A DNA stretch of 64,000 nucleotides from the NCBI GenBank assembly GCA_016192845.1, contig JACPTI010000015.1, positions 17,022-81,021 of the forward strand, read 5' to 3'. A program made the position numbers and the translations under genes. Below, in pieces: positions 21,237 through 52,790 of this stretch (its first letter is position 1; every line of letters begins with the position of its first letter). Below the pieces are notes generated by a model, which saw only the letters and a list, made by a program, of their open reading frames with translations, was not told the DNA's origin and did not search any database. The DNA is from Acidobacteriota bacterium (lineage in GTDB: Bacteria; Acidobacteriota; Vicinamibacteria; Vicinamibacterales; UBA2999).

Positions 21237-21253
21237 GGAGAAACTGCACCTAA

Positions 21254-21261
21254 ATTATACT
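21254..21261. promoter_or_regulatory. Overlapping face-to-face -10 boxes: TATACT (+, 21256-21261) and TATAAT (-, 21259-21254)
   Basis: The plus-strand box ends 6 nt before ATG 21268. The minus-strand box lies 17 nt before the aspA ATG at 21236. Confidence 0.45.
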
Positions 21262-21267
21262 GCTCGC

Positions 21268-22847: not shown

Positions 22848-22877
22848 TTGTTCGGCCCGGATGCCGGAGCTTATAAT
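22848..22877 (+). promoter_or_regulatory. Candidate promoter TTGTTC, 18 nt spacer, TATAAT for erpA
   Basis: TATAAT at 22872-22877, TTGTTC at 22848-22853. GAGGAG Shine-Dalgarno precedes ATG 22910. Confidence 0.45.
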
Positions 22878-22909
22878 TGGGATCCGCGGTTTCGAGGAGA
22901 ATTCACACA

Positions 22910-23233
22910 ATGATCAACGTGTCCCCGACGGCTGCGTCGAAGATCAACGAACTGCTTGCCGAGGAAGGCAAGACGGGCAGCGGCCTGCGCGTGTTCGTGC
23001 AGGGCGGCGGCTGCTCCGGATTTCAGTACGGGCTGATGATCGAGGAGAACGGCGGCGCTGGCGATCAGGTGTTCGAGTCCAACGGCGTGAGGCTCTTCGT
23101 CGACCCGATCAGCATCAGCTATCTGAAGGGTGCCGAAGTCGATTTCGTCGATACCGTGACGGGCGGGGGCTTTACGATCAAGAACCCGAACGCGGTGTCG
23201 ACCTGCGGGTGCGGCCAGTCCTTCACCGTGTAG
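22910..23233 (+). CDS. erpA: Iron-sulfur cluster insertion protein (HesB/IscA/ErpA family)
   Basis: In-frame ATG at 22910. MINVSPTAASKINELL..., conserved Cys in GGGCSGFQY, and C-terminal CGCGQSF. Confidence 0.9.
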   Translation: MINVSPTAASKINELLAEEGKTGSGLRVFVQGGGCSGFQYGLMIEENGGAGDQVFESNGVRLFVDPISISYLKGAEVDFVDTVTGGGFTIKNPNAVSTCGCGQSFTV

Positions 23234-33025: not shown

Positions 33026-33085
33026 TTCGTGATTGGCCATGAGCGATTGGTGATTTCGACATCACAAATCACGAATCACGAATCC
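33024..33085. repeat. REP-C: imperfect long hairpin of ATTCGTGATT / AATCACGAAT units
   Basis: ATTCGTGATTGGC at 33025-33037 is identical to 59509-59521. Inverted copies lie at 33062-33080. Confidence 0.75.
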
Positions 33086-38900: not shown

Positions 38901-39272
38901 ACAGTCGAGGCGGTACTTCGCATGATTCGGCCGGACGAGACGGCGGCAGTGCCGCCGCACCGTGGTGCCGCGGATCTGGCCCGGCGCGCGGCCGACGCGT
39001 ATCGTGCGATCTGCGGCCGGCCGGACCTTCGCGCGATATACGAGGCAGGAGAGCGCCTTCACGAGGTGCCGTTCACGATGCGCGTGGACGGCGCGTTCGT
39101 CCGCGGCACCATCGACTGTCTCGTCCGCTCCGAGGCGGACCGCATGACCGTGCTCGAGTTCAAGACGGGGCGGCCGCGCGACGAGCATCGCCTCCAGCTC
39201 GACATCTATCGACGCGCCGCGGAACGGCTGTTTCCGGGCTGCGCGGTCGACGCGCGGCTCGTCTACGCATGA
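35985..39272 (+). CDS. addA: AddA-type UvrD-family helicase / PD-(D/E)XK nuclease
   Basis: 1095 aa. Walker A ASAGTGKT, UvrD-type helicase motifs, and the C-terminal nuclease motif GTIDCLV...LEFKTG. ATG 36033 is an alternative start. Confidence 0.9.
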   Translation: MTASNATLPFGDGSGTMDARIVARDHAARARAVDPRYNVALEASAGTGKTRVLVDRYLNLLRAGVDPANILAITFTRKAAAEMRDRIMATLRAAAARGEIPPARWRELRDRTADIVISTIDAFCLSLLREFPLEADVDPGFAVADDTELPRLIDEALDRALRICRAAAHQTGAGGEDVALVFAHVGERRARAGLATLLQRRTSAHRALEAWLDGGPAGLDAASASRRAAAALIGVFESMRGGFERFRLTGPLEPTFLLLMRSVGAVREALQRGADVHPAAVHTALARTREYFLTRDGRPRSRSRCPRAAFASEVDWRVHTDLVAAHAADVSGVLAAYRRDVNVLLSRGIRRMFASAEAEYRRTLDAHAVLDFSDLLLRALDLLRRMEEFSRSRYRLESRYHHVLVDEFQDTSRAQWELVALLVKSWGEGAGLAAAGPLQPSIFIVGDRKQSIYGFRDADVSVLREAARHLELLRPDGGVRRSISRSFRAVPALLAFVNDVCHDMDKVPGDEAFEYEEADRFPIEPALSDGGTRGDTLGLVVAPTAEECAEITAAEIARLIARGTPVRDRDTGASRPVRADDIAILFRSRESHREYDEALVRRGVRAYVYKGLGFFDADEIKDVLALVRYLADPDSNLQAAALLRSRFFGVSDEGLRRLAPCLAEVLGAPAPEAVASLAEDDARALVEARAAVSRWRTLVDRVPPAELVDLALAESAYAFELRGPRFPQAWENLKKVRALLRRLQNRGYATMARTAAHLDRLTVGDEGNAVVDAADAVHLMTVHAAKGLEFPVVFLVNLGRGTANRRDVVGDVEDDAGEARAAREREETKRLVYVALTRARDRLYLAAVLKDGRLVPGRGSLAGVLPSSLLPTFTAVGRTRTEWRASSGTVHPFQVCSAGPSEDSRPVAGPAASVAGRCSADADFEPLADATLPAHRTAAATVEAPAADADRLIGRLVHRMLQRFGFDAGEQATVEAVLRMIRPDETAAVPPHRGAADLARRAADAYRAICGRPDLRAIYEAGERLHEVPFTMRVDGAFVRGTIDCLVRSEADRMTVLEFKTGRPRDEHRLQLDIYRRAAERLFPGCAVDARLVYA

Positions 39273-41177: not shown

Positions 41178-42281
41178 ATGTCCTCAGTGGTCGATCGCGA
41201 CGGCGTGCTGGCGGCCCTCAAAGCGGTCGTCGATCCCGACCTGCGGCGCGACATCGTCTCGCTCGGGTTCGTCAAGAACCTGGCGATCGACGGTGGGCGC
41301 GTGACGTTCACCATCGAGCTGACCACCCCGGCCTGCCCCGTGAAGGATCAGATGCGCGATCAGGCGATCGCCGCGGTGCGCGCGCTTCCCGGCGTCAGGG
41401 ACGTGGACGTCCGGATGACCGCGACCGTGCGCTCGGTCTCCGCGCCCGAAACCGGCCGGACCCCGCTGCCCGGGGTGAAGAACGTGATCGCGGTGGGCGC
41501 CGGCAAAGGGGGCGTCGGCAAGACGACGGTCGCGGTCAATCTGGCGCTGGCGCTTGCCAGGTGCGGCGGCCGGGTCGGCATCCTCGACGGCGACATCTAC
41601 GGGCCGAACGTGCCGATCATGCTGGGGCTGCAGCAGACGCAGTTGACCACCGACGGCAGGCAGATCCTGCCCGCGGAGCGCTACGGCCTGCAGGTCGTCT
41701 CGATCGGGTTCCTGACGGGCGACGACGCGCCGGTGATCTGGCGCGGCCCGATGCTGCACGGCGCCATCCAGCAGTTCTTCCGCGACGTGGCGTGGAAGGA
41801 CCTCGACTACCTGATTGTCGACATGCCACCGGGCACCGGCGACGTGGCGCTCAGTCTCAGCCAGACGGTCCCGGTCGCCGGTGCGATCCTCGTGACGACC
41901 CCGCAGCAGGTGTCGCTGGCGGATACGCGGCGCGCCGTCCGCATGTATCAGAAGCTCAACATCAAGCCGATCGGCGTCATCGAGAACATGAGCTATTACG
42001 CCTGCCCGAACTGCCACCACGAGGCCGACATCTTCGGCTACGGCGGCGGAGAGGAGCTCGCCACGTCCATGGAGGTACCGTTCCTCGGCCGCCTTCCGGT
42101 CTACCAGCCGATTCGGGTCGGGAGCGACACCGGGGTGCCGCTCGTCGTCAGCGAGCCCGAATCGCCGGCGGGGCGGGCGTTCAGGGCGGTGGCCGAGCGG
42201 ACCGCGGCGCAGATCTCGATCGAGGCGCACAAGGTCGCCGAGGCGAACAGGGGCAAGATTCCACTGATTCCGGTGCGATAA
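41178..42281 (+). CDS. apbC: Mrp/ApbC/NBP35-family Fe-S cluster carrier ATPase
   Basis: In-frame ATG at 41178. N-terminal DUF59-like domain, deviant Walker A GKGGVGKT, and CPNC motif. Confidence 0.9.
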   Translation: MSSVVDRDGVLAALKAVVDPDLRRDIVSLGFVKNLAIDGGRVTFTIELTTPACPVKDQMRDQAIAAVRALPGVRDVDVRMTATVRSVSAPETGRTPLPGVKNVIAVGAGKGGVGKTTVAVNLALALARCGGRVGILDGDIYGPNVPIMLGLQQTQLTTDGRQILPAERYGLQVVSIGFLTGDDAPVIWRGPMLHGAIQQFFRDVAWKDLDYLIVDMPPGTGDVALSLSQTVPVAGAILVTTPQQVSLADTRRAVRMYQKLNIKPIGVIENMSYYACPNCHHEADIFGYGGGEELATSMEVPFLGRLPVYQPIRVGSDTGVPLVVSEPESPAGRAFRAVAERTAAQISIEAHKVAEANRGKIPLIPVR

Positions 42282-42345: not shown

Positions 42346-42558
42346 TCAGTGGTGGCGGACCGTCTCGACGGCGGCGCGCACGCCGAGCCGGACGTACGCG
42401 TCGCCGAGCAGCTCCACCAGCTGCGCGAACTCGCGCAGGGTCAGCGTGACGGTGACGTTCTGGAGCCGCACGTGGATGCACCCGTTGGTGCACTGGTACA
42501 CGGCCCACCGTGACTTCCTCGACAACGTTTCCTCCGACCGTTGAGATGTACCGTCCAT
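42346..42558 (-). CDS. Small hypothetical protein (70 aa)
   Basis: In-frame ATG at 42558 after AAAGGGG. MDGTSQRSEETLSRKSRWAVYQCTNGCIHVRLQ.... Lies 22 nt downstream of the chimeric ORF. Confidence 0.4.
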   Translation of the reverse strand: MDGTSQRSEETLSRKSRWAVYQCTNGCIHVRLQNVTVTLTLREFAQLVELLGDAYVRLGVRAAVETVRHH

Positions 42559-42580
42559 GGAGCAGCCCCTTTCTGTGGCA

Positions 42581-43855
42581 TCAGCGGGCGCCCGCCCTCG
42601 CAAGCACCCAGGTCACCAGGCGGTCGTCGGGCAAGAGCGCGGCGTCCGTGATCGCGTACGTCAAGCCCTCGAGGCGCTCGCGGAGCCCTCGCTCGATTCC
42701 GCCGAACGACACGAGCAGCGGCACGATGAGCACCCGTCGGCCTTCTTGCGAGCGTTTCAGTACCAGGTCGCGCAGTGCGGCGGCTGCCTGGTCCCGGATC
42801 GGCCGCGGGGCGTCGTCGCGAAGCGTGAGGTAGTCAATCGACGCGTACTGCTCGCTACTCCGGAGGCGACCGGTCAATGACGCCATGTCGGCGAGCCAGC
42901 GGCGATTGTCGTCCTCGTCATTCGGTCCGTGCGCCACGATGACGAGCGCTTCGTTGGTCGCGCTGCGGCTGATCGCGCGGGCGCGGCTCGCCAGAATGTC
43001 GGCGACGATCGGATGGTCGTTGAGCGCCGGGGTCATGCGAATCGGCACGCGCGAGACGACCGGAAGCATGCCGTCGGTCTCCGCGTGGGCGTCGTGAGCG
43101 GCGGCGGGGCCTGATCCCGGTTGCGGGTGACTCATCTTCGCGTAGCGGGCCAGGGCCGGTGGCGCGTCGGTGCGCAGCCCCAGCAGGTATTGGTCCAGGT
43201 TGAGGACGCCGCCGCGCTTGATGCCGCGGGCGCCAACCACAGGCTGGCCATCGACGAGCACTAGGACCTGTCGCGAATCGATGCCCTGAATCTGCTCGCC
43301 GGCGGCGCCCGAGGTTTCCGAGCCGCGGCGGGTCACGACGCCCGGCAGCTCGCGCAGAATCTCGCCGACGGTTTCGTGGCCGCCGGTCTCCTCGATGCGG
43401 CTGCGGGTGATCACGTCGACCCGCGAGTTGAGGGTCTCCCGAAGCTCCTGCTGGCGTGACGCAGAGACAACGGTGACCTGCTCGACAATCGGCGCGGGCG
43501 ACAGTGTGAAGGTCAGCGCTGGCGCCCAGGGTAGCGTGGCGACGCTCGTCGCCGGCGCGAACCCCGGAGCCGACACCGTGATCGTGTACTCGCCCGCCGG
43601 GAGTCGCGGCGCGGCAAAGGTGCCGTCCGCACCGCCGGCCATCACGCGTTCGAGGCCGGAGGGCTCCTGACGAATGACTACCGTCGCACGCGGGATCACG
43701 GTGCCGGACCCGTCACGCACGACGCCGGATAGGGTCTGGCTGGCGGGTTCCGAGCCGACGGGCGACCGTACGTCCGCCTGGGCTGCAAACGCCGGACTGG
43801 AGATAATGGCGAAAAGAAGAGCTGTAACGCCCCAGATGTGCAGAATTGGCTTCAT
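42581..43855 (-). CDS. Chimeric ORF: signal peptide + CarboxypepD_reg-like domain + truncated TonB-receptor plug, fused to a CbiX/SirB-like chelatase domain
   Basis: ATG at 43855 after AAGGAAGG. The N-terminal region is TBDR-like up to ...VLVLVDGQPVVGARGIKRGGVLNLDQ, with no barrel. The C-terminal part has ALVIVAHGPNDEDD...VLIVPLLVSFGG (CbiX-like), preceded by what looks like the tail of a first CbiX half. Confidence 0.65.
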   Translation of the reverse strand: MKPILHIWGVTALLFAIISSPAFAAQADVRSPVGSEPASQTLSGVVRDGSGTVIPRATVVIRQEPSGLERVMAGGADGTFAAPRLPAGEYTITVSAPGFAPATSVATLPWAPALTFTLSPAPIVEQVTVVSASRQQELRETLNSRVDVITRSRIEETGGHETVGEILRELPGVVTRRGSETSGAAGEQIQGIDSRQVLVLVDGQPVVGARGIKRGGVLNLDQYLLGLRTDAPPALARYAKMSHPQPGSGPAAAHDAHAETDGMLPVVSRVPIRMTPALNDHPIVADILASRARAISRSATNEALVIVAHGPNDEDDNRRWLADMASLTGRLRSSEQYASIDYLTLRDDAPRPIRDQAAAALRDLVLKRSQEGRRVLIVPLLVSFGGIERGLRERLEGLTYAITDAALLPDDRLVTWVLARAGAR

Positions 43856-43964
43856 GACGCACCTTCCTTGCACGCCATGAAGCGAGGCCGTAGACTAGCA
43901 TCGTCGGGCGCTCCTCATGCGCGCAGCGCGTGAATGGTTCCACCTAGAACCTGCGTTCGACACG

Positions 43965-43992
43965 CCCGCCGGGTGTGTCAGCACCCGGCGGG
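43965..43992 (-). terminator. 11-bp GC hairpin after apbE (CCCGCCGGGTG / CACCCGGCGGG), no U-tract
   Basis: Read directly from the sequence, 42 nt downstream of the apbE stop. Confidence 0.5.
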
Positions 43993-44033
43993 CCCTTTCT
44001 CTCCCTAGCCCTCTACATCAAGAACTTTCACCT

Positions 44034-45020
44034 TCACTGCACCGCTCCGAACCGCTCTCGAAAGGCACGTGAGACCGCGAGGCGCACGGTTCCGCCCTCT
44101 GGAATCAGATAGATGGCAGCGAACCCGTGCGACTCGGCCCACGGCAGCCCTTCCTCCGGTCCCATCACGAACAAGGCGGTCGACAGCGCATCGGCGGCAA
44201 GCCCGCGGCGATGCCACACGGTCACGGATCCGTCGAACGACGCCGGCCAGCCCGTGCGCGGGTCGAAGATGTGCGCGATGCGGACACCGTCGACCGTGAT
44301 GTCGCGCTCGGATCCGCCGCTCGTCGCGAGCGACCCGTCGCGGAGCTGTACGTGCAGGTACGGTTGATCGCGTCGGCGCGGGTGGGCGATGGCCACGGTC
44401 CACCCTTCTGCAGGCCCGGCGCCGCCGACCGAGATCTGACCACCCAGGTCCACCATCCACGACACGTTGCCGAGCGCCGCCTCGACGCGGTCGAGGGCCT
44501 CGCCCTTGCCAAACGCCCCCACATCAACGGCGACGTCGCCGCGCCTCGTCAGGGTGCAGGCGGTACGGTCGAAGGCGAGCAGCGCCAGGCCCGATGCCGC
44601 CGACGCCCGGACCCGCACGTCCGGTGCGGGAATCGCCCCGTCGCCGTGCACATCCCACGCCGCCAGCAGCCGTCCGATGGCGGGATCGAACGCGCCTCCG
44701 GTGGCCGCATGCCAGCGCCATACTTCGTCAAAGGTGCGGCAGAGCGTCGGACCGGCATGCCAGGGCACGCCGACGGGATGACGGTTCAGGCCGGAGATCG
44801 CGCTCGACTCGCGCCACGTACTGAGGTCCTGCTCGGCGCGCTCCAGCACGTCGAGCGCGGTGGCGAGCGTCGCGAGCCCCTGGTCGCGCGTCGGGGCGGC
44901 CGTCGCCAGCCGCGCGCGCGTCCCCATCAGGTATACGTCCCGCGTGACGAGCGTAGATGCTGCGCCGGACGCGGCGGCGGCCGCGCAGCTCGTCAGGAGC
45001 AGCACCGCGACCGCCTTCAT
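44034..45020 (-). CDS. apbE: FAD:protein FMN transferase (ApbE), lipoprotein
   Basis: In-frame ATG at 45020. Lipobox LLTSC. ApbE-like motifs (AFDPAIG, VDLGGQ, ATSGGSER, HIFDPRTG). Confidence 0.9.
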   Translation of the reverse strand: MKAVAVLLLTSCAAAAASGAASTLVTRDVYLMGTRARLATAAPTRDQGLATLATALDVLERAEQDLSTWRESSAISGLNRHPVGVPWHAGPTLCRTFDEVWRWHAATGGAFDPAIGRLLAAWDVHGDGAIPAPDVRVRASAASGLALLAFDRTACTLTRRGDVAVDVGAFGKGEALDRVEAALGNVSWMVDLGGQISVGGAGPAEGWTVAIAHPRRRDQPYLHVQLRDGSLATSGGSERDITVDGVRIAHIFDPRTGWPASFDGSVTVWHRRGLAADALSTALFVMGPEEGLPWAESHGFAAIYLIPEGGTVRLAVSRAFRERFGAVQ

Positions 45021-45487
45021 GCCAGCTCGCCTATCGGGGAGCCGGCACGCGCCTCCTGGCGGGTCCGCGCCAAAGACAGGCTGATCACGAGGTGCGCGGC
45101 GTAGACCAGGGTGAACAAGGCACCGCCAGCGATGTGCACGACGACGAGCGCCTGCAGCCACCAGTCGCTCGTCGTGACCTGGAGCAGATAGCCGGACAAC
45201 ACCATCACGGCGAAGCTGCCGAGCGACACGTACCCCGACAGCCGGTTCGGCAGCCGTGGCGCCCCGAGCTTCCTCATGACGTGGGAGTTGAACGCGATCC
45301 CGAAGACCAGGATGAAGAGCGGCGAGGCAATCACGTGCAGGTTCAGCATCGCCGTTTGCCACGGATGGTTCACCACGGCAAACGGGTCCGGCGGCTCCAT
45401 GAGGTACTTCATCCACAGGTAGACGAAGCCGGTCACCGCCAGGATGAGCGACAGACTATTCAAGCTCCAGCGTTCCCACCGTTTCAC
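45017..45487 (-). CDS. Four-helix His-rich membrane protein (cytochrome-b-like / DUF4405-like candidate)
   Basis: The GTG at 45487 overlaps the upstream stop (GTGA). There are 4 hydrophobic segments, with His in NLHVIASP, NSHV, VVVHIAGG and AAHLV. Confidence 0.6.
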   Translation of the reverse strand: MKRWERWSLNSLSLILAVTGFVYLWMKYLMEPPDPFAVVNHPWQTAMLNLHVIASPLFILVFGIAFNSHVMRKLGAPRLPNRLSGYVSLGSFAVMVLSGYLLQVTTSDWWLQALVVVHIAGGALFTLVYAAHLVISLSLARTRQEARAGSPIGELA

Positions 45488-46017
45488 TGGTCTTCTCCTG
45501 TGAGGACATGATCGATGGCGAGCACGCGGCGCACCGCGGCGTTGGTGGCGCGGGCGGTCAGCGTCGCGCCGGCAATCGGCCGGATGGCGCGGTTGATTCC
45601 GAGGTCGTCGGCCAGTTCCCGCCCGCGGTACTGGCGCAGCCACGGCTCGGACGCGCGGTACTCGGGCGGCTCGAGGAAGGCGGTGACGTCGATGCGCAGC
45701 AGACGGCCGTCCGCGTCGAGCGAAATCAGCAGGCTCTCCTTCTTCGTCCGCACGATGTGCGTGTCGACGTAGGCGCGGCCGACCGGCGTGCCGCCGCGCG
45801 CGGCGAGATACCGGGCTACGAGCGGCGACGGGACATCCGTTCCGGCGGCGGCCGCCGCCTGTTTCATCTGCGCGGCCGTCAGGAACACCTGCTCGGATCG
45901 GATCTGCGCGCCCGAGTAGACGTCCGCGAGCGCCTCCTCGCGGCTGATTCCCTGCGCCTGCAGGGCCGCAGCCGCGGCCCAGAGTCCGATGCCGATCGCG
46001 CAGAGCCGGAGCCGCAT
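45484..46017 (-). CDS. Periplasmic FMN-binding domain protein
   Basis: 177 aa with a signal peptide. The C-terminal motif RPIAGATLTARAT matches the flavinylation consensus (GAT[L/I][T/S]); T152 is the candidate residue. Confidence 0.8.
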   Translation of the reverse strand: MRLRLCAIGIGLWAAAAALQAQGISREEALADVYSGAQIRSEQVFLTAAQMKQAAAAAGTDVPSPLVARYLAARGGTPVGRAYVDTHIVRTKKESLLISLDADGRLLRIDVTAFLEPPEYRASEPWLRQYRGRELADDLGINRAIRPIAGATLTARATNAAVRRVLAIDHVLTGEDQ

Positions 46018-46018
46018 G

Positions 46019-47419
46019 TCAGAAGGCGTATCCGAGGTTGATGTTGAACTGGTTGCGTCCGGTGTCGGCCGCGTTGCGGACCCACTGGTAGTCGGTCTTG
46101 ATGACCACGTTCGGGATCGGCTTCACCTCGACGCCCAGCGTCGTAAACCTGCCGTCGCGGGCGAGATCGCGCGTGAACCCGGCCGGGATGCGATGCTGCG
46201 TGTTCAGGCGCTCGTACCGCACGTACGGCACGACCGCCATCTCCGTGGCGACCTGCGACAGGACGTTGTAGCCCGCCTGCAGGTATCCGCCGCGCATCGT
46301 CTCGGCAATCGGCGCCGTCGCCGGCAGCCGTAGCGCGAGGCTGGCCGCGCCTGCCTCATCGATCGACGCTTCCGCGAAGAGCGCACGCAGATCCCACCCG
46401 CGCAGTTGCGCCTGGCCGTGTACTTCCACGATCGTGGTGCCGACGTCGAGACGTGCGCCGTCGAGCACCACCTGCTCTTGGCCCGAGCCGCCGTTGTAGA
46501 GGCCGATGCCGCCGTACACGCCGGGAATCGGTGTCACGTCGACGCGCCCGGAAAAGGCCAGGTTCGCCGCCAGCGCGTTGCCGCCCTTCTGCCGGCCGCC
46601 GCGAAGGCCCGCCGACGTGAACGCCGCGCCCCGGAACCCGTTCGTGACATACGCGCGGAAGTTCAGCATCCCGGCCGAGCCGAGAATGCCGGCGCCGTTC
46701 TCGCGCCAGGTGCTCGGAATGATCCGCTGCTCTGTTTCGGGGCGCTTGGCACCAATGAAGACCGTCGGCTCGTGGAACTCGTTCGTGAGGCCGAGCGGCA
46801 GCAGGATCATGCCGCCGCGGAGCGTGAGATTGTCGTTGGCCAGGTAGTCGACGTACGCGAACTCAACCGAGATCTCGTTGGAGTGCTCGATCTCAATCTC
46901 GGAGTTGAAGAGGAACTTGTCGCTGAAGCGGTAACCCGCGTAAAGGATGGCCCGCAGGAAGTCGAGGCGCGTGGTCGGCGCGCCGCCCCGGCCCGCCTCG
47001 TTCTCGCTCGCGAAGTTCTCGAGCAGCGTCTCGCCGTAGCCGGCAATCGACACTCCTTCGGTCGCCCGGCGGTAGGTCGCCGCGGCAGAGGGCGCGAGCC
47101 CGAGCGCGCGGCGCCGCTCCTCGGTCAGCTCCACCTGGGGCGTCTCGCCGCTCCGCAGCTTTTCCACTTCCGCCGCGAGGACCTCGATGCGGCGCTGCAG
47201 CTCGTCAATCTGCGCCTGCCCCTGGGCGGGGGCTTCGGCGGCTTCCGATCCGGTCTCCGTGGGCGTCGGAGCGGCGGGTGACGGATCGGCGGCTACGACG
47301 GTGGCAGGCCCCCCGCGGTCAGCGGAAGCGTCGGCCTGCTGAGCGACGGCTGGAGGGCTGGACAAGGCCAGCAGGAACACGACGGCCGGAATGACTGGAA
47401 TGGGGAGGCGGTGCGGCAC
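46019..47419 (-). CDS. Outer-membrane porin-like beta-barrel with N-terminal coiled coil
   Basis: 466 aa, GTG start, signal peptide. Coiled-coil segment QIDELQRRIEVLAAEVEKLR, alternating beta-strand pattern, and a C-terminal ...NLGYAF. Confidence 0.7.
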   Translation of the reverse strand: MPHRLPIPVIPAVVFLLALSSPPAVAQQADASADRGGPATVVAADPSPAAPTPTETGSEAAEAPAQGQAQIDELQRRIEVLAAEVEKLRSGETPQVELTEERRRALGLAPSAAATYRRATEGVSIAGYGETLLENFASENEAGRGGAPTTRLDFLRAILYAGYRFSDKFLFNSEIEIEHSNEISVEFAYVDYLANDNLTLRGGMILLPLGLTNEFHEPTVFIGAKRPETEQRIIPSTWRENGAGILGSAGMLNFRAYVTNGFRGAAFTSAGLRGGRQKGGNALAANLAFSGRVDVTPIPGVYGGIGLYNGGSGQEQVVLDGARLDVGTTIVEVHGQAQLRGWDLRALFAEASIDEAGAASLALRLPATAPIAETMRGGYLQAGYNVLSQVATEMAVVPYVRYERLNTQHRIPAGFTRDLARDGRFTTLGVEVKPIPNVVIKTDYQWVRNAADTGRNQFNINLGYAF

Positions 47420-47463
47420 GGGATGACTCCAAATCCGAAGAATGAGTTAAAATGAGACGAAAC

Positions 47464-47478
47464 TGAGACTGAGTCTCA
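47464..47478. promoter_or_regulatory. 15-bp palindrome TGAGACT-G-AGTCTCA within an AT-rich divergent control region
   Basis: Read directly from the sequence. It is flanked by further GAGAC/GAGTC half-sites at 47454, 47491 and 47514. Confidence 0.5.
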
Positions 47479-47592
47479 CTTTCAGATTCGAGTCTATTAC
47501 CGACTTCTGAGGCGAGTCAAGCAGAAAAACCGCGCTACGACCGCGATACGATCACGACGCTGCCGCGCGCGACACGAAAGGGAGCAACGACT

Positions 47593-48543
47593 ATGACTCA
47601 TCTAACCGGAAGAAAGCGGCATCGTGGCGCGATCGCGGCGGTGCTGGGGGCGGTTCTGGCCGCCGGATGCGGCGGAACCGAGCCTGCCGCGCCCACGCGG
47701 CTGGTGATCGCGGTGCAGCCGACGGCCACGGCCGAACAGCTGGCGGCCGAATCGAAGGAGCTGGAGCAGTTCCTCGAGGCCAGACTGCCGAACGTCGACG
47801 TGGAGCTGCGCGTCCCGACGCTTTTTGCGGGGGTAATCGAGGCGCTGCGCTTCGGTCATGCCGACGCGGCGTTCATGAGCGCGTGGCCGGCGGCCCTCGC
47901 TCAGAAGCACGCCGGTGCCGAGGTGGCGCTCGCCGAGGTGCGGCAGGTGCTCATCGATCGCGAAACCGTCGAACGGCCTTTTTACTACTCCTACTGGGTC
48001 GTAATGCCCGGCAGTCCGTACAAGTCGCTCTCCGATCTCAAGGGACGGCGCGTCGCGTTTCCAAGCCCGCTGTCGACATCCGGCTACGTGATGCCGATGG
48101 CCAAGCTCGTCGAGCTCGGCCACCTGACGCCCGGGGAAGGCGAAGCCGACCCGGAGCAGTTCTTCGGGCAGGTTTTGTTTGCCGGCGGCTACGCGCAGGC
48201 CTGGCAGGCGCTGAAAGCGGGGCAGGTCGATGCGACGATCATCGCCGGCGACGTTCCGGCGGCGTTGTACAACGAGGTGCTCGCCGCCACTCGCGTCGTC
48301 GAGTCGCAGGGGCCGATCCCGTCGCATGCGGTCGTGTTCGCGAAGACGCTGCAGGAGCCGATGCGCTCGCAGCTGCGCGACGCGCTCATGGCGCTTGGCG
48401 ACGAGCAGCACCGGGATCTGATGCGCCGCTTCATTTCGGGCATCTTCGTCCGGTTCCAGCCGGCGACCACGGAGGAGCACCTGGCGTCCCTCCAGCAGTC
48501 GCTCGAGGCGACCAACCTCCGGTTCACCGAGCGGCTGCGGTGA
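47593..48543 (+). CDS. PhnD-family (phosphonate/phosphite-type) ABC substrate-binding lipoprotein
   Basis: 316 aa with lipobox LAAGC. PhnD-like pattern (FGHADAAFMS, STSGYVMP). Confidence 0.8.
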   Translation: MTHLTGRKRHRGAIAAVLGAVLAAGCGGTEPAAPTRLVIAVQPTATAEQLAAESKELEQFLEARLPNVDVELRVPTLFAGVIEALRFGHADAAFMSAWPAALAQKHAGAEVALAEVRQVLIDRETVERPFYYSYWVVMPGSPYKSLSDLKGRRVAFPSPLSTSGYVMPMAKLVELGHLTPGEGEADPEQFFGQVLFAGGYAQAWQALKAGQVDATIIAGDVPAALYNEVLAATRVVESQGPIPSHAVVFAKTLQEPMRSQLRDALMALGDEQHRDLMRRFISGIFVRFQPATTEEHLASLQQSLEATNLRFTERLR

Positions 48544-49319
48544 TTCGCGCCGCCGTTCCGCTGTCGCCGGCGCCGGAGGCCGGGGCCGCCGCCATCGAGG
48601 CGGTCCGCCTCTCGTGCGCGTACGTGCCCGGCCGGCCCGTGCTGCAGGAGATCGATCTCGTCGTCGCGGCGGGATCGATCTCGATGATTCTCGGGCCGAG
48701 CGGCAGCGGCAAGAGCACGCTGTTGAAGGCCGTCAAGGGGCTGGTGCGGCCCCAGTCGGGGACGCTCTCGCTCTTCGGCGAACCGGCTGGCGCCCCGGAC
48801 CGGCGCGCGGATCGTGCGCTGCGATCGGTGGCGTGGATTCCGCAGAACCTCGGACTGGTCCGTAATCTGACCGTCCTCGACAACGTGCTGACCGGCGCGC
48901 TCGGCCGCGTCGGGAGCCTGCGGTCGCTGATTGGCGCGTTTCCGGCCGCGCTGCGGGACGAAGCGCTGGCGACGCTCGAATCGCTCGGCATCCACCAGAA
49001 GGCCGCAGAGAAGGTCTACAGCCTGAGCGGCGGCGAGCGCCAGCGGGTCGCCATAGCGCGGGCGCTGATGCAGCGCCCGAGACTCGTGTTGGCCGACGAG
49101 TTCGTCTCGCAGCTCGATCCCGTCACCACGCGCGAGAGCCTCGACGTCGTCCGGCGCATCGCGGCCACGGGGGTGACGTTCCTCATCACGTCGCACGAGG
49201 TGGAGCTGGTGGCCGAGTACGCCGACCGGGTCGTCGTGCTGCGCGGCGGCCGCAAGATTCACGACGGGGCGGCGGGCTCGTTCACCTGGACGTCCGTGAT
49301 GGGGCTGCTCGGCCGATGA
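48540..49319 (+). CDS. ABC transporter ATP-binding protein (PhnC-like)
   Basis: The GTG at 48540 overlaps the upstream stop (GTGA). Walker A GPSGSGKST, signature LSGGERQ, Walker B LVLADE. Confidence 0.85.
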   Translation: MIRAAVPLSPAPEAGAAAIEAVRLSCAYVPGRPVLQEIDLVVAAGSISMILGPSGSGKSTLLKAVKGLVRPQSGTLSLFGEPAGAPDRRADRALRSVAWIPQNLGLVRNLTVLDNVLTGALGRVGSLRSLIGAFPAALRDEALATLESLGIHQKAAEKVYSLSGGERQRVAIARALMQRPRLVLADEFVSQLDPVTTRESLDVVRRIAATGVTFLITSHEVELVAEYADRVVVLRGGRKIHDGAAGSFTWTSVMGLLGR

Positions 49320-50101
49320 GCGCGCGCCGTCCCTCCGGGCTGTCCGTGACGGCGGCGCTTGCCGCCGCCGTGGCGCTCGTCATGATGGCGGACCTCGGGC
49401 TGCTCGATCGCCGGCAGCTCAGCCTGGCATGGAGCAACACGGTCGTGTTCGTGGGCGAGCTGTTTCCGCCGAGCGCGCAGCCGATGCCAACGCTGCTCGA
49501 CGCGACCGTCGAGACGCTGCAGATTGCCTACGTGGGCACGGTGCTCGGCTTCATCGCGGCGCTTCCGCTGGCGATCCTGGCGACGCGCACGATTTTCGGC
49601 CCGTATGTGGCCGGGCCGGTGCGGCTGCTTCTCGCCGCCGTGCGCACCGTGCCTGCGCTGCTCTGGGCGGTTGTCTTCGTCGTGGCATTCGGTCTCGGGC
49701 CGGCCGCGGGCGCGCTCGGCATCGCCGCCTATACGCTCGGCTACCTCGGGAAGCTCCTGTACGAGGCGTTCGAGGGGGTCGACCACGAAGTCGTCGACGC
49801 CGTGTGGAGCGTCGGCTGCAACCGCGTGCAGCTGACCCGGTTCGCCGTGCTGCCCGAGGCCGCCAACCAGATCCTGAGCCAGCTCCTCTTCGTCTTCGAG
49901 TACAACGTTCGCGCCTCGTCGATCATGGGCTTTGTCGGGGCCGGCGGTATCGGCTTCCACCTGCTCGGCTACCTGCAGCTGCTGCAGTACCGGAATCTGC
50001 TCACTGCGCTGCTGCTGACGCTGGGCCTGGTGCTGCTCATCGATTACGCGAGCAGCCGGGTCCGGCGCCTCGTGCTGCCGCCGCTGGCGCACGGCGCGTG
50101 A
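49316..50101 (+). CDS. ABC transporter permease (PhnE-like)
   Basis: 261 aa, polytopic. ATGA overlap with the ATPase gene. Confidence 0.85.
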   Translation: MSARRPSGLSVTAALAAAVALVMMADLGLLDRRQLSLAWSNTVVFVGELFPPSAQPMPTLLDATVETLQIAYVGTVLGFIAALPLAILATRTIFGPYVAGPVRLLLAAVRTVPALLWAVVFVVAFGLGPAAGALGIAAYTLGYLGKLLYEAFEGVDHEVVDAVWSVGCNRVQLTRFAVLPEAANQILSQLLFVFEYNVRASSIMGFVGAGGIGFHLLGYLQLLQYRNLLTALLLTLGLVLLIDYASSRVRRLVLPPLAHGA

Positions 50102-51420
50102 TGGACTCGGTCTCGCTCCCCTTTGCCAGGCAGACGCTCGCCAACGGTCTCGACGTCATCGTCCACGAGGACCATCACGTGCCGATCGTCGCCGTCAACG
50201 TCTGGTATCACGTCGGTTCCAAGAACGAGCGCCCCGGCCGCACCGGCTTTGCCCATCTGTTCGAGCACCTGATGTTCGAGGGCTCTGCGCACCACAACGC
50301 CGGGTACTTTCCGCCGCTCCAGCGGGCGGGAGCAATGCTGAACGGCTCCACCAATACCGACCGGACCAACTACTGGGAGGTCGTGCCGACCAGCGCCGTC
50401 GATCTCGCCCTCTGGCTGGAATCCGATCGCATGGGGTACCTGCTGCCCGCGCTGACAGAACAGCGCTTCGAGACGCAGCGCGACGTCGTGCTGAACGAGC
50501 GGCGCCAGAACTACGAGAACCGGCCGTACGGGTTCGCGGTGATGGCGATAGCGGCGGCGCTCTATCCCGACGACCACCCGTACCACTGGCTCACGATCGG
50601 CACGGCTGACGACCTGCGCGCGATGCGGCTGGAAGAGGTCCAGGAGTTCTTCCGCACCTACTACCACCCGGCCAACGCGTCGCTGACGCTTGCGGGCGAC
50701 ATCGACCCGGGTCGCGCCTTCGAGCTGGCGGACCGTTACTTCGGCGAACTGCCGGCCGGCGCGCGTCCCGAGCCGGTCCGGCCGGCTTCCGCGGCGGCGC
50801 CCGGCCGGGAAGTGCGCCTCCTGCTGGAGGACCGCGTCGAGCTGCCGCGCCTCTACATGGCCTGGCATTCGCCGGCCATGTTCCACGATGGAGACGCGGA
50901 GCTCGACCTGCTGGCCGACCTGCTCGCCAACGGTAAGGCCTCGCGGCTGTACCGCACGCTGGTCTACGAGCGGCGCATTGCGCTCGATGTCTCGGCGCAC
51001 CAGAATTCACGCGAGCTGTCGAGCTTCTTCCTGCTCGTCGCCACCGCAGCGCCCGGCCAGTCGCTCACCGACATCGCGGCCTTCATCGACCTCGAGCTGC
51101 AGCGGACGGCAGACGAGGGTCCGTCGGAGGCGGAAATGGAACGCGCCCGCGCGCAGATCGAAGCCCAGTTCATGTACCGGCTCCAAACGGTCGGCGGGTT
51201 CGGAGGGAAATCGGACCAGCTGAACGCGTACAACATTTACCGCGGGGACCCCGGATTTTTTGCCGCCGACCTCGCGCGCTATCGCACCGCGACGCGAGAG
51301 TCGGTGCGCGAAGCAACTCACCGGTATCTCGGCGTCGACCGTCGGGTCGTGCTGAGCGTGGTGCCGCGCGGCCAGCCTTCGCTGGCCCTGGCCGGCTCCG
51401 AGCCGGTGTCGGTTGCCTGA
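50101..51420 (+). CDS. M16 family zinc peptidase, catalytic-type subunit
   Basis: ATG at 50101 shares 1 nt with the permease stop (TGATG). HLFEH zinc motif. No signal peptide. Confidence 0.9.
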   Translation: MDSVSLPFARQTLANGLDVIVHEDHHVPIVAVNVWYHVGSKNERPGRTGFAHLFEHLMFEGSAHHNAGYFPPLQRAGAMLNGSTNTDRTNYWEVVPTSAVDLALWLESDRMGYLLPALTEQRFETQRDVVLNERRQNYENRPYGFAVMAIAAALYPDDHPYHWLTIGTADDLRAMRLEEVQEFFRTYYHPANASLTLAGDIDPGRAFELADRYFGELPAGARPEPVRPASAAAPGREVRLLLEDRVELPRLYMAWHSPAMFHDGDAELDLLADLLANGKASRLYRTLVYERRIALDVSAHQNSRELSSFFLLVATAAPGQSLTDIAAFIDLELQRTADEGPSEAEMERARAQIEAQFMYRLQTVGGFGGKSDQLNAYNIYRGDPGFFAADLARYRTATRESVREATHRYLGVDRRVVLSVVPRGQPSLALAGSEPVSVA

Positions 51421-52790
51421 TGCCGGCGGATCGCTCCCGGCTGCCCGAGGTTGGTCCGGATCCACCCTTCAGGTTCCCGGCCATCGTCCGGCACCGGCTC
51501 GCCAACGGTCTCGACGTCCGCACCATCGAGCACCACACGGTGCCGGTGGTGTCGTGCGTCCTCCAGATTCAGGGCGGCGCGGGCGGCGACCCGCCAGGCG
51601 AGGAGGGCCTTGCGGCCATCACCGCCGACATGGTCGACGAGGGCACCGGCCACCTGAGCGCCATCGACGTCTCGGAAGGTTTTGCCCGCCTGGGCGCCGA
51701 ATATGACGTCGAAGTCGGTCCCGACGCCACGCTCTTCAGCCTCACCGTCCTGTCGCGCTTTGCCGAACGCGGTCTGTCGCTGCTCGCCGACATCCTGGCC
51801 CGGCCCAGCCTGCGGGGGCACGATTTCGAACGCGTGCGGAAGCTCCGCCTCGATCGCCTGCGCCAATTGAAGGATCTGCCGCCGGCGGTGGCCGAACGCG
51901 CGTTCCTGCGTCTGGTATATGGCGACCATCCGTACGGACACCTCCCAATCGGCACCGAGGCGGCGCTGCGGGCCTGTCGCGTGGAGCGCGTCGCGGAGTT
52001 TCATGCGGCGGCTTTCAGTCCGGCGCGCGCGACGCTCGTGCTGGCGGGGCCGCTCGCGCACGAGACCCTGCGTGCCCTGGTAGCCGCCGCGTTTTCCCGT
52101 TGGGCGGACGACGGTCCGGACGGAGCCGCCGCGACCGCAGCCGCCATCGATCCGCCGACGCTCCCGCGCCGGCTGGCCATCGTCCCGCGCGCCGGCGCCG
52201 CGCAGTCCGAGCTGCGCATCGGTCATCTGTCGGCGCGGCGCAACACGCCCGACTATGCGGCGCTGCTCCTCATGAATGCCGTGCTGGGCGGCCAGTTCGT
52301 CAGCCGGATCAACCTGCGCCTGCGCGAGGAGAAGGGCTATACCTACGGCGCGCGGACCGGCTTCGACTGGCGCCGCGGCCCGGCTCCGTTCGCGCTCCAG
52401 GCGAGCGTGCACACCGCCGCCACCGCGGACGCCATCCGCGATACGCTCGCCGAGTTCGATGCCATCCGAGGCGCGCGGCCGCCGTCGGACGAGGAGATGG
52501 CGCTGGCGAGGGCATCGCTCACGCGCGGCTACCCGCGCAACTTCGAGACGGCCGAGCAGGTGGCCCGATCGGTCGCGCAGCTTGCGCTCTACGACCTGCC
52601 CGATTCCTACTTCCAAGAGTTCGTTCCGCGCGTCAACGCTGTCGAACGCAGCGACGTCGTCCGCGCCGCCGAGCGGTATGTGGATGCGGCGCGCGCGACG
52701 ACGCTCATCGTCGGTGATTATCAGGCGATCGGCGAATCGCTCCCGCCGCTCGGCTACGGCGAGCCCCAGATCCTGCCGCCGGACGAGTGA
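51420..52790 (+). CDS. M16 family peptidase, non-catalytic-type subunit
   Basis: 456 aa. TGATG overlap with the upstream M16 gene. No HxxEH motif. Confidence 0.85.
   Translation: MPADRSRLPEVGPDPPFRFPAIVRHRLANGLDVRTIEHHTVPVVSCVLQIQGGAGGDPPGEEGLAAITADMVDEGTGHLSAIDVSEGFARLGAEYDVEVGPDATLFSLTVLSRFAERGLSLLADILARPSLRGHDFERVRKLRLDRLRQLKDLPPAVAERAFLRLVYGDHPYGHLPIGTEAALRACRVERVAEFHAAAFSPARATLVLAGPLAHETLRALVAAAFSRWADDGPDGAAATAAAIDPPTLPRRLAIVPRAGAAQSELRIGHLSARRNTPDYAALLLMNAVLGGQFVSRINLRLREEKGYTYGARTGFDWRRGPAPFALQASVHTAATADAIRDTLAEFDAIRGARPPSDEEMALARASLTRGYPRNFETAEQVARSVAQLALYDLPDSYFQEFVPRVNAVERSDVVRAAERYVDAARATTLIVGDYQAIGESLPPLGYGEPQILPPDE

Follow-up and report, generated by a model that had tools for sequence, protein, structure and literature searches.

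Iron-linked flavinylation systems have been described in several bacteria. Meheust et al. (2021, PMC8238504) described assimilatory iron-reductase clusters of the PepSY-like/DUF2271/ApbE and MsrQ-like/FMN_bind/ApbE types. These flavinylation clusters are tied to iron assimilation and linked to Fur, TonB receptors, and ferrous transporters, and they have been proposed to reduce Fe(III) in the periplasm. In Caulobacter, the iron-regulated ApbE cluster corresponds to CC_3059-3063 and is up-regulated 12- to 51-fold under iron limitation or loss of fur (PMC3751524). Huang et al. (2024, PMC11334425) showed that DUF4405-type cytochromes, which have six transmembrane helices and are found mainly in Proteobacteria and Firmicutes, also occur with apbE.

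Here, we analyzed a locus with related components in 64,000 nucleotides of acidobacterial DNA (the window). Our preferred reading, to which we give a probability of about 0.6, is that it holds two independent, modular iron-repressed units in a variable iron-acquisition island of a soil Acidobacterium. One unit is a four-gene flavin cassette on the minus strand, and the other is a PhnCDE-like ABC importer on the plus strand. The gene map and module identities given in an earlier note on this DNA agreed with ours, and every gene it described was found.

The cassette begins with a gene for a 466-aa outer-membrane beta-barrel-like protein (46019-47419). It is followed by genes for a secreted FMN_bind protein (45484-46017), a 156-aa four-helix membrane protein (45017-45487), and ApbE (44034-45020; Pfam, 2.2e-56). 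Start and stop codons overlap inside each operon as GTGA, ATGA or TGATG; the start of the 156-aa protein overlaps the upstream stop codon as GTGA, and the ATG of ApbE likewise overlaps the stop codon of the gene before it. The ApbE flavin transferase is probably a lipoprotein, judging from its LLTSC lipobox. The FMN_bind protein has a signal peptide and scores 22.5 bits against the Pfam FMN_bind cut-off of 22 bits. Its AGA[T/S] motif is kept across 74 homologs and reads AGAT in the window, whereas the published flavinylation motif is [S/T]GA[S/T]. We propose that this protein is the flavinylation target of ApbE.

The 156-aa protein, for which NCBI annotates an identical sequence, itself gave no significant Pfam or structural match. 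Its AF2 model consists of four long helices (pLDDT 75), and His41, 51, 69, 118, and 132 are each at least 95% conserved in 58 sequences. Among 28 homologs, 18 matched cytochrome b561 (PF01292) weakly (best 3.6e-6) and 10 matched DUF4405 weakly. The five conserved histidines together with these weak matches point to an electron-conduit role, and we propose that the protein is a di-haem b-type cytochrome carrying electrons across the inner membrane. The barrel protein has a signal peptide, an N-terminal coiled coil, and a C-terminus ending in GYAF. It has no Pfam match and yields just weak OMP matches, and its family has no Pfam model. A relative (P0381) clears the Porin_O_P cut-off, which suggests that the family is distantly related to Porin_O_P. 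The family comprises 2821 representative clusters, several of them with ApbE fused.

The two operons diverge from a region of exactly 173 bp (47420-47592). Its GC content is 51.4% (41.8% in its core) against 68.8% for the whole window, which bears out the AT-rich divergent region that the earlier note had reported. We found a perfect 7-1-7 palindrome of the Fur-family operator type, TGAGACTgAGTCTCA, at 47464-47478, and this is its single occurrence within the window. It starts 13 nt downstream of the -10 element of a sigma-70-like cassette promoter (47491-47520, minus strand; TTGACT, 18 nt, TAGACT), and relatives keep the layout TTGACC...TATAGACT...box. In 1.46 Mb of related loci, 81 of the 88 matches to the box lie beside the start of the barrel gene, in 60 of 80 loci, although these positions make up only 3.3% of the sequence. 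Divergent lineages have versions of the box that shade into classic Fur boxes, for example TGAGAATGATTCTCA and AATTGATAATCAATT. The box also precedes the TonB receptor and importer in L081 and L083 (related loci are numbered with L). Both operons are probably repressed by a Fur-family regulator through this one predicted operator, and the suggestion that one regulatory region serves both is thus plausible.

The plus-strand operon encodes a PhnD-like substrate-binding lipoprotein (47593-48543; PF12974, 1.5e-46), a PhnC-like ABC ATPase (48540-49319; ABC_tran, 8.7e-31), and a PhnE-like ABC permease (49316-50101; BPD_transp_1). The permease scores 240.2 bits against the PhnE equivalog, over the cut-off of 216.7, and the ATPase scores 201.7 bits against the PhnC equivalog, under the cut-off of 266.1. 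The closest solved relative of the binding protein is PtxB, at only 8e-14. In other genomes, a DtxR-family gene lies just upstream of the importer in 25 of 54 evaluable loci, mostly in divergent orientation; Fur was found in four importer loci and FTR1 in five. The order in L084 is Fur and DtxR, divergent from binding protein, ATPase, permease, FTR1, and cupredoxin, and FTR1 also stands alongside the importer in L081. In L081 and L083, a TonB-dependent receptor either shares an operon with the importer or is transcribed divergently from it, so that the importer's adjacent outer-membrane partner is this receptor and not the barrel. The recurrence of TonB receptors, FTR1, Fur, and DtxR beside it suggests that this is a parallel metal-linked importer.

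We then estimated how often the two units occur together within 10 kb of each gene. The complete collinear four-gene cassette was found in 69 of 74 evaluable related loci, and its other neighbours differ from locus to locus. In 73 loci, 3 kb or more of sequence was available upstream of the barrel gene; among these, the binding protein adjoins the cassette in one, and an ATPase or permease in none. When 83 loci were assembled around the binding protein, cassette genes were found only in L086 and the partial contig L098, both of which match the L001 genes at the same identities. The binding protein is kept beside the cassette in L001, L086, and L098; in L001 and L086 it runs straight into M16a, so that no transporter gene could fit between them. 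L081, L083, and L084 have the importer but lack the cassette. The four flavin genes are therefore a self-contained cassette, and the expectation that the two operons would co-occur and stay divergent in related genomes failed. Because they are found apart in relatives, the locus resembles a patchwork iron-acquisition island and not one fixed uptake pathway.

Two M16B peptidase genes follow the permease: an active-type subunit (50101-51420, plus strand; Peptidase_M16 and M16_C, with HLFEH) and an inactive-type subunit (51420-52790, plus strand; the same domains, HxxEH absent). Neither has a signal peptide. They are translationally coupled to the permease in the window. Of the 24 importer loci that could be evaluated, the window among them, only three have M16 genes 3' of the importer, and these three belong to a single lineage. 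Fourteen relatives retain M16a, and in nine of them it is oriented divergently to the barrel gene at a distance of no more than 300 bp; in nine close relatives no ABC genes stand between the M16 pair and the barrel gene. The same insertion site holds an Fbp-type ABC operon in L003 and an IS1595 transposase in L006. The M16 pair is thus made up of syntenic backbone genes, next to which the ABC genes were inserted. The proposal that these peptidases provide the cytoplasmic proteolysis step of a pathway does not agree with their position as backbone neighbours that are missing from 21 of the 24 importer loci.

Iron links recur around other cassettes, including distant ones. In L166, fur comes before an FTR1 gene that has two REGxE motifs and is joined to the barrel gene; FMN_bind, a 179-aa protein, and ApbE are encoded next, in that order. 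In L167, fur is followed by an ApbE-barrel fusion, and in L168 a FeoA-domain gene lies upstream of such a fusion. TonB receptors stand 3' of ApbE in L001 and L003, and a periplasmic CbiX-family gene and TonB receptors flank the cassette in L003/L001. Immediately upstream of the L003 cassette is the Fbp-type importer (ATPase, binding protein, and a 563-aa double-domain permease), preceded by the same operator.

A similar history is seen on the other flank of the window cassette. The ORF at 42581-43873 (minus strand) has a signal peptide, a CarboxypepD_reg domain, and a match to positions 5-69 of the 107-position Plug profile; a beta-barrel domain was not found in it with Pfam. In comparison with L003, its residues 5-228 match the N-terminal part of an intact 815-aa receptor at 66% identity, and its residues 228-428 match the C-terminal part of the product of a 315-aa CbiX-family gene at 68% identity; about 2 kb are missing relative to these intact genes. 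The ORF is a genuine in-frame deletion product, a chimeric pseudogene in which a TonB receptor is fused to a periplasmic CbiX-family gene. The earlier note had called it a decayed TonB-receptor/CbiX-like gene, and the truncated Plug, the missing barrel, and the CbiX-family C-terminal half show that this was correct; the history of metal acquisition that it read from this flank is also borne out. A small conserved 85-aa ORF 3' of the CbiX-family gene (42346-42603, minus strand) is 63% identical to an equivalently placed ORF in L003, and that L003 ortholog has no Pfam match.

Several other explanations were considered. The cassette may be a periplasmic redox system outside iron assimilation, under a Fur-family regulator other than Fur (PerR, Zur, or Mur), with candidate roles in oxidative-damage repair, copper/manganese redox, or quinone/flavin cycling. 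All Fur-family regulators have the 7-1-7 box in common, so that TGAGACTgAGTCTCA could belong to another member. The window has a single Fur-family gene (23252-24232), whose product has a rubrerythrin-like C-terminal tail, more typical of peroxide regulons, and scores similarly against Fur, Zur, and PerR models. Flavinylated systems also have many redox functions (PMC8238504). However, FTR1 with REGxE joined to the barrel gene in L166, the FeoA-domain gene in L168, and the Fbp-type ABC genes, TonB receptors, and CbiX-family gene around the cassettes of L003 and L001 all argue for iron, and a reductase partner such as MsrP or NosZ was found in or next to none of the cassettes in 80 loci. We consider a non-iron role unlikely. 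Slightly less probable still, in our estimate, is the single outer-membrane-to-cytoplasm pathway of the earlier note, in which the barrel admits the substrate, the flavoprotein reduces it, the PhnD-like system imports it, and the M16 peptidases process it. This is favoured by the operator shared in the 173-bp region, by the metal links of both modules elsewhere, by the coupling of the M16 genes to the permease, and by L003. Since the L003 importer is non-homologous, the cassette has acquired an importer on two or more occasions, and a pairing of cassette and importer could have been selected for. Against it stand the adjacency counts (1/73 and 0/73), the direct abutment of binding protein and M16a in L001/L086, the TonB receptor as the importer's partner in relatives, and the M16 genes, absent from most importer loci and found beside cassettes that have no ABC genes. 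In addition, Fe(II) from ferric reduction is no obvious ligand for a binding protein with an S-T-S motif.

That the barrel and FMN protein form an outer-membrane electron conduit like porin-cytochrome complexes, reducing extracellular Fe(III) minerals for what could be respiration or solubilisation, appears very unlikely. The barrel family is specifically tied to ApbE (at least nine fusions among the top 150 representatives), and the barrel gene is always first and abuts the FMN_bind gene, with a gap of 1 nt in the window. However, the barrel-like domain spans only about 400 residues, the barrel model is of low confidence (pLDDT 48), the flavoprotein has a single FMN domain, multihaem or multi-flavin proteins are absent from the cassette, and Fur-type control points to assimilation rather than respiration. 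We give the least credence, and very little, to phosphorus acquisition through a Porin_O_P-like channel and a PhnCDE-like importer of phosphite, phosphonate, or phosphate. The binding protein has a conserved S-T-S motif that lines up with the STS conserved in PtxB; we take this motif, from work on PhnD and PtxB, to be an oxyanion-binding site. Together with a permease that passes the PhnE equivalog, it makes a phosphorus substrate possible; the binding protein also passes TIGR01098, and a barrel relative passes Porin_O_P. However, the binding protein reaches only 122 bits against the PhnD equivalog model, where 261 are required, and is remote from the solved PhnD, PtxB, and HtxB structures, the neighbouring regulators are DtxR and Fur, and C-P lyase, ptxD, and pho genes were absent from the importer loci examined.

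Under the preferred reading of two independent iron-repressed units, the island would be lodged between backbone genes, namely an Mrp/ApbC-like Fe-S carrier gene and the M16 pair. In the first module, the di-haem cytochrome would take electrons from the quinol pool or the cytoplasm and transfer them across the inner membrane, ApbE would covalently attach FMN to the secreted FMN_bind protein, and this flavoprotein would reduce periplasmic Fe(III), free or chelated. Fe(III) may enter the periplasm through the dedicated barrel or neighbouring TonB receptors, and the uptake of Fe(II) would fall to the inner-membrane transporter available in each genome, which in one distant lineage may be the FTR1 permease joined to the barrel gene. 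The second module, the PhnCDE-like importer, would have come to lie between the cassette promoter and the M16 genes through an insertion in this lineage. It would not be a required downstream step of the first module, and the M16 peptidases may be passengers, now co-transcribed by chance. The fusion ORF would be what is left of a third iron module, one that a relative has kept intact.

Compared with known systems, M16 peptidase genes lie close to TonB-receptor or iron-regulated genes here, as in the protease-associated import systems FusA/FusC and YddB/PqqL. However, proteases of the FusC/PqqL type are large, single-chain, and periplasmic, whereas the window has a cytoplasmic M16B-type pair of backbone neighbours that lack signal peptides. 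P19/FTR1 and EfeUOB/FtrABCD-type iron permease systems have a counterpart in the FTR1 genes with REGxE at the barrel gene in L166 and in those beside the importer in L081 and L084, in L084 together with a cupredoxin; FTR1, P19, and cupredoxin genes are absent from this region of the window. The importer shares its three-gene architecture, Pfam/NCBIfam families, and aligned S-T-S motif with PhnCDE/PtxABC, but its binding protein and ATPase fail the equivalog cut-offs, and its partners are DtxR, Fur, FTR1, and TonB receptors instead of phosphonate catabolism genes. FbpABC/HitABC are represented by the Fbp-type operon that takes the same insertion point in L003 with the same operator in front, whereas the window importer is non-homologous, with a single-domain permease and a PhnD-type binding protein. 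Like the DUF4405-like cytochromes (PMC11334425), the cassette has a small histidine-rich membrane protein beside apbE with paired histidines on two helices, but this protein is acidobacterial, has four helices, and matches DUF4405 at a non-significant E-value of 0.38. The flavinylation-linked iron-reductase clusters are closest, since both combine ApbE with a secreted flavinylation substrate and a haem-type transmembrane electron carrier, the latter two being proposed roles in the cassette. The cassette differs in its carrier (156 aa, four transmembrane helices, no match to PepSY (PF03929/PF16357) or MsrQ (PF01794)), in its FMN_bind substrate with AGAT, and in its dedicated first-gene barrel without a Pfam model; neither of the flavinylation papers, PMC8238504 among them, has the word "porin" in its text. 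The best reading is that the cassette represents a variant of flavinylation-linked ferric reductase systems that has not been seen before.

The gene map was drawn from the ORF listing together with Pfam and NCBIfam scans of the window, which has a GC content of 68.8% and comes from an Acidobacteria MAG. After an Mrp/ApbC-like Fe-S carrier gene (41178-42281, plus strand), the minus strand carries an 85-aa ORF (42346-42603), a chimeric ORF in which a TonB receptor N-terminus is fused to a CbiX-family C-terminus (42581-43873), and the genes for ApbE (44034-45020), a 156-aa membrane protein with four predicted helices (45017-45487), an FMN_bind protein (45484-46017) and a 466-aa barrel-like protein (46019-47419), the last identical to NCBI locus tag HYY76_02475. 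The four genes from barrel to ApbE are called the cassette here. Across a divergent gap of 173 bp (47420-47592), the plus strand encodes the importer, that is, a PhnD-like binding lipoprotein (47593-48543), an ATPase (48540-49319) and a PhnE-like permease (49316-50101), and then two M16 peptidase subunits, M16a (50101-51420) and M16b (51420-52790); alpha/beta hydrolase and amidase genes lie 3' of the M16 pair. The genes inside each operon overlap by GTGA, ATGA or TGATG, and the GC content is 51% in the gap and 42% in its core. Gene map, overlaps and gap composition therefore show that the architecture of the two divergent operons was described accurately in the earlier note. Upstream of this region, an AddAB-like pair on the plus strand (33026-39272; a PD-(D/E)XK nuclease protein and a UvrD-type helicase-nuclease) belongs to the conserved backbone and is found in the importer locus L083 too.

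The barrel homologs were aligned, and the window proteins were located by tblastn in 80 species-representative loci with 10-kb flanks. The barrel relatives are almost all Vicinamibacterales. The order barrel, FMN_bind protein, membrane protein and ApbE was complete and collinear in 69 of the 74 loci with enough downstream sequence. A binding-protein homolog adjoined the cassette in only one of 73 evaluable loci (L001, the closest relative), and ATPase or permease orthologs did so in none of the 73. The binding protein of L001 abuts M16a directly, so that there is no room for a transporter. M16a was divergent from the barrel gene in 14 of the 73 loci, all of them closer relatives; the gap was at most 300 bp in nine of these, which means that the ABC genes are simply absent there. 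The neighbours in the remaining cassette loci were unrelated, clade-specific housekeeping genes. Among the closest relatives, an orphan intact binding-protein gene next to the cassette, directly before M16a and without ATPase or permease, was seen at 8879-9826 of L001 and at 10001-10948 of L086; in L098 the binding-protein gene (6901-7584) is cut by the contig end.

The reverse test used 83 loci centred on the binding protein, eighty of them metagenomic (L086-L165). Conservation within the binding-protein family is 60-85% across Acidobacteria, Chloroflexi/Dehalococcoidia and Binatia. Cassette genes were found only in L086 and on the partial contig L098, with the same identities to the L001 genes, and M16 genes in 3/24 evaluable importer loci, namely the window, L081 and L086, which belong to a single lineage of Acidobacteria. 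L081 shows 85% identity and has the same backbone (Mrp, M16a-M16b, amidase); here a TonB receptor, FTR1 and two small genes are transcribed divergently from the importer. In L083, Mrp, a TonB receptor, the binding protein and the ATPase follow in that order on a single strand, and in L084 FTR1 and a cupredoxin gene come after the importer, which is divergent from fur and a DtxR-family gene. The survey from both sides therefore shows that the two operons occur independently in related genomes. This is the outcome that the earlier note itself had named as contrary to its claim of one outer-membrane-to-cytoplasm reductive uptake pathway, and that claim was not borne out.

Between Mrp and M16a, the window holds the remnant (chimeric) gene, the cassette and the importer; L002, L004, L005 and others hold the cassette only; L001 has the cassette, a TonB receptor and the orphan binding protein; and L081 has a TonB receptor, FTR1 and the importer, without the cassette. 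The corresponding stretch of L003 comprises a Fbp-type ferric ABC operon (ATPase, FbpA-like binding protein and 563-aa double permease), the cassette, an 815-aa TonB receptor, a CbiX-family protein, an 82-aa ORF and a second TonB receptor. An IS1595-family transposase gene (8887-9849 of L006) lies exactly at the M16a/barrel junction, which is the insertion point of the ABC genes in the window, and its position fits an insertion hot spot. The better-supported reading is that the region would be an iron-responsive island of interchangeable modules. The pathway across all compartments is an effect of insertion into the hot spot, and the architecture itself is real. As a lesson of method, a neat reading of divergent operons that covers all compartments can stem from insertion into a recombination hot spot.

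The flank of the cassette had been described as a decayed TonB-receptor/CbiX-like gene, and this was confirmed by an in-frame deletion of about 2 kb; the origin of the gene was identified through L003. Residues 5-228 of the chimeric ORF have 66% identity to the 815-aa receptor of L003, residues 228-428 have 68% identity to the C-terminal half of the L003 CbiX-family protein, and the join falls at ...VLNLDQ|YLLGLR.... The chimeric ORF matches only positions 5-69 of 107 of the Plug domain and has no barrel match, while the intact L003 ortholog has both. The CbiX domain (PF01903) gave no match in the window remnant; the full-length L003 ortholog matches it (1.4 × 10−10) in the N-terminal half, which the window has lost. 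A descent of the remnant from the receptor that accompanies the importer in L081 and L083 was rejected, because identity is 28% to the L083 receptor and no match exists to that of L081, against 66% to the L003 receptor encoded after ApbE. The L003 gene at 15824-16771 encodes a 315-aa CbiX-family (class II chelatase-like) protein with a signal peptide after the TonB receptor, and the C-terminal half of this protein survives in the window at 42581-43270. In an iron island, a periplasmic protein of this chelatase-like kind may have tetrapyrroles or metal chelates as substrates. In both genomes the CbiX-family gene is followed by a small conserved ORF of 82-85 aa (window 42346-42603; L003 16732-16980) with the motif YQC..GC.HVRLQNVT and no known domain.

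We found a perfect 7-1-7 palindrome of the Fur-family operator type, TGAGACTgAGTCTCA, at 47464-47478 of the divergent gap; it is unique in the window, where no further copy exists at up to two mismatches. This box lies 13 nt downstream of the -10 element of a sigma-70-like promoter on the cassette strand (TTGACT, 18 nt, TAGACT; 47520-47491). Among 1.46 Mb of related loci, 81 of 88 box matches (at most one mismatch) fell inside 600-bp windows around the barrel start, which make up 3.3% of the searched sequence, and the matches span 60 of the 80 loci. Several remaining loci have variants nearing the classical Fur box, such as TGAGAATGATTCTCA, TGAAATTGATTTTCA and AATTGATAATCAATT. The layout of -35 element, spacer palindrome CCGAC-N7-GTCGG, -10 element and box is kept in relatives, with or without M16/ABC genes on the opposite side. 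The spacer palindrome was seen in L002, L004, L005, L010, L011, L014 and L076; its window counterpart (about 47497-47514) has a degenerate left arm. This palindrome may serve as a further regulator site. Within the gap, just upstream of the cassette promoter, lies a terminator-like hairpin with a T-run (47529-47547, minus strand), which may be an insulator or an insertion scar.

The same box precedes the TonB receptor and the importer in L081, where it has two copies, as well as the receptor-importer operon of L083 and the Fbp-type operon of L003. Judged from these shared sites, the cassette, the TonB receptors and both kinds of ABC importer appear to belong to one regulon in the lineage, and this supports their co-regulation in the window although the modules are separable. 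The shared box is 115 nt upstream of the ATG of the window importer. No second importer-side 7-1-7 palindrome (at most one arm mismatch) was present in the first 90 nt from the box, and none was seen by eye in the 26 nt adjoining the start codon; L081 has such a second box. Fur binding and an iron response of the box are putative, and their support is the fur genes that adjoin the cassette in the distant loci L166 and L167. Homologs of FTR1, DtxR and the L081-type receptor are absent from the window, which contains only a Fur-family ORF at about 23.3 kb. This 326-aa ORF (23252-24232, plus strand) has a Fur-family domain (residues 15-133) and a rubrerythrin/ferritin-like C-terminus, and may instead be a read-through of two genes. 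It is preceded by an IscA-like Fe-S gene and a class I (Fe-S) fumarase gene, the latter divergent from a class II (iron-free) fumarase gene (grouped genes at 22877-23233, 21235-22809 and 19830-21236). The neighbourhood could form the centre of an iron or peroxide regulon, and the product of the ORF may act on the box at 47464 as its regulator.

The cassette proteins were compared with known families. ApbE matches PF02424 over profile positions 1-265 of 266 (2.2 × 10−56, 191.8 bits), and it is a family member rather than an equivalog because its score against the E. coli-type equivalog model (94 bits) is below the cut-off of 498. Its N-terminus, MKAVAVLLLTSC, has a lipobox-like LTSC as read from the sequence, and an extracytosolic location is predicted. 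The FMN_bind protein matches PF04205 marginally (22.5 bits, gathering cut-off 22); its orthologs in L166 and L168 reach 26.2 and 24.3 bits. The published flavinylation motif is [S/T]GA[S/T] (PMC8238504), whereas the motif conserved here is AGA[T/S], with Ala first in nearly all of the 74 homologs and the GA and acceptor Thr/Ser kept.

Five histidines of the 156-aa protein are at least 95% conserved among 58 sequences, whose identity falls as low as about 41%. Helix 2 carries H51 and H69, helix 4 carries H118 and H132, and H41 is in a loop. Under a topology deduced from the positive-inside rule, the spacing of the four helix histidines would be as expected for two bis-His haems. The AF2 model has four long helices, while six transmembrane helices have been described for DUF4405 (PMC11334425). 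The window protein has no significant match to either DUF4405 (PF14358, E = 0.38) or PF01292, for which there was no match at all. Of 28 homologs, 18 weakly match cytochrome b561 (PF01292; best 3.6 × 10−6) and 10 match DUF4405 (best 0.017). A Foldseek search of the model against the PDB gave nothing at E ≤ 0.001; the top matches were unrelated helical bundles, and the E. coli hydrogenase-1 cytochrome b ranked third (E = 0.76).

The barrel protein has a signal peptide, a coiled coil and a C-terminal ...GYAF, and its matches to outer-membrane proteins are weak. The window protein does not match Porin_O_P (PF07396); one of 25 close homologs scores 0.0087, and a distant relative, P0381, scores 23.1 bits, above the cut-off of 20.9. 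The kinship with Porin_O_P is distant and transitive only. The AF2 model based on the 25 close homologs is unreliable (mean pLDDT 47.8), with strands predicted in the C-terminal half only, and the family profile found nothing meaningful and no solved relative among PDB sequences. The barrel as a DUF3570-like flavinylated protein was also considered and rejected, since none of 25 members matches DUF3570 at E ≤ 1. No [S/T]GA[S/T] motif was seen by eye in the barrel sequence.

The importer is PhnCDE-like. Its permease scores 240.2 bits against the PhnE equivalog TIGR01097 (cut-off 216.7), but the ATPase is below its equivalog cut-off and the binding protein scores 122.1 bits against the PhnD equivalog TIGR03431 (cut-off 261.1), passing only the broad subfamily TIGR01098. 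The solved structure nearest to the binding protein is PtxB (8 × 10−14), and its invariant S-T-S aligns with the conserved STS of PtxB. A three-domain DtxR-family regulator gene lies just upstream of the importer, divergent in most cases, in 25 of 54 evaluable loci; other recurrent neighbours among the 83 loci are Fur (4), FTR1 (5) and TonB receptors, and no phn or ptx catabolic genes were among the recurrent neighbour clusters. Titles and abstracts of the literature mentioning PF12974 hold no link to metal regulons, and a literature search on PhnD with DtxR and iron returned nothing relevant. The label "phosphonate ABC binding protein" beside DtxR genes in several phyla suggests systematic mis-annotation of a metal-linked importer family, and PhnD-like importers beside DtxR/Fur genes across phyla may be an unrecognised iron-linked class of ABC importers. 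Annotated phosphonate transporters in the metal regulons of several phyla affect metagenome counts of phosphorus and iron cycling genes. In the M16 pair, M16a has HLFEH and M16b lacks HxxEH; both have M16 and M16_C domains and no signal peptides, and the pair weakly resembles YfmF/YfmH and PqqF.

A whole-library profile search gave 2821 representative clusters of the barrel family at E ≤ 1 × 10−3. Among the top 150 representatives, at least nine are fusions of an N-terminal ApbE with a C-terminal barrel, and one is FTR1 joined to a barrel. ApbE-barrel proteins of 734-880 aa recur (P0371, P0376, P0377, P0379, P0381, P0388 and P0458; loci L167, L168 and L169), and such a fusion would anchor the flavin transferase at the outer membrane. 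The gene orders of the distant loci are fur, FTR1 joined to barrel, FMN_bind, a 179-aa protein and ApbE in L166; fur and an ApbE-barrel fusion in L167; a FeoA-domain gene, an ApbE-barrel fusion, FMN_bind and a 164-aa membrane protein in L168; and a MacB/FtsX-type ABC system upstream of an ApbE-barrel fusion in L169. FTR1 and barrel were called as a single 687-aa ORF in L166 (2923-4986), with two REGxE motifs and then a signal-peptide-like segment at the junction; the alternatives are a real fusion and an overlooked stop or frameshift.

Iron is the best-supported metal signal for the cassette, because of the distant fur, FTR1 and FeoA-domain neighbours and the TonB, Fbp and CbiX neighbours. Published work fits the iron reading: flavinylation clusters have been linked to the assimilation of iron, to ferrous transporters and TonB receptors, and to Fur (PMC8238504), cytochromes of the DUF4405 type are encoded together with apbE (PMC11334425), and an ApbE cluster of Caulobacter is induced 12- to 51-fold under iron limitation or fur deletion (PMC3751524). 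The conserved core of the island is the putatively Fur-box-controlled cassette (barrel, flavoprotein, mini-cytochrome and ApbE), which would most likely act as a periplasmic ferric reductase. Past homology, synteny and motif conservation, we infer the mechanistic steps of the cassette. Vicinamibacterales and related Acidobacteria are abundant in soils and rarely cultured, and to our knowledge their iron physiology has been little studied. Our analysis yields a testable operon model for these bacteria, which comprises a promoter, an operator and four genes along with predictions of the cofactors and of the acceptor residue.

Pfam-based flavinylation surveys delimit their systems with models from Pfam and KEGG; neither the barrel nor the 156-aa cytochrome-like protein has a Pfam match of its own. 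A predicted outer-membrane component and a predicted minimal four-helix cytochrome would be additions to the catalogue of flavinylation-based extracytosolic electron transfer. Because the barrel is fused to ApbE in several lineages, a bolder proposal, which we consider quite unlikely, is that it would be a dedicated outer-membrane flavinylation partner rather than a passive porin, and would form an envelope-spanning flavin electron conduit with the FMN protein and the mini-cytochrome. If this were true, iron-starved soil Acidobacteria would switch the conduit on and so solubilise minerals or chelates of Fe(III) at the outer membrane or farther out, and the conduit would be the flavoprotein counterpart of porin-cytochrome complexes.
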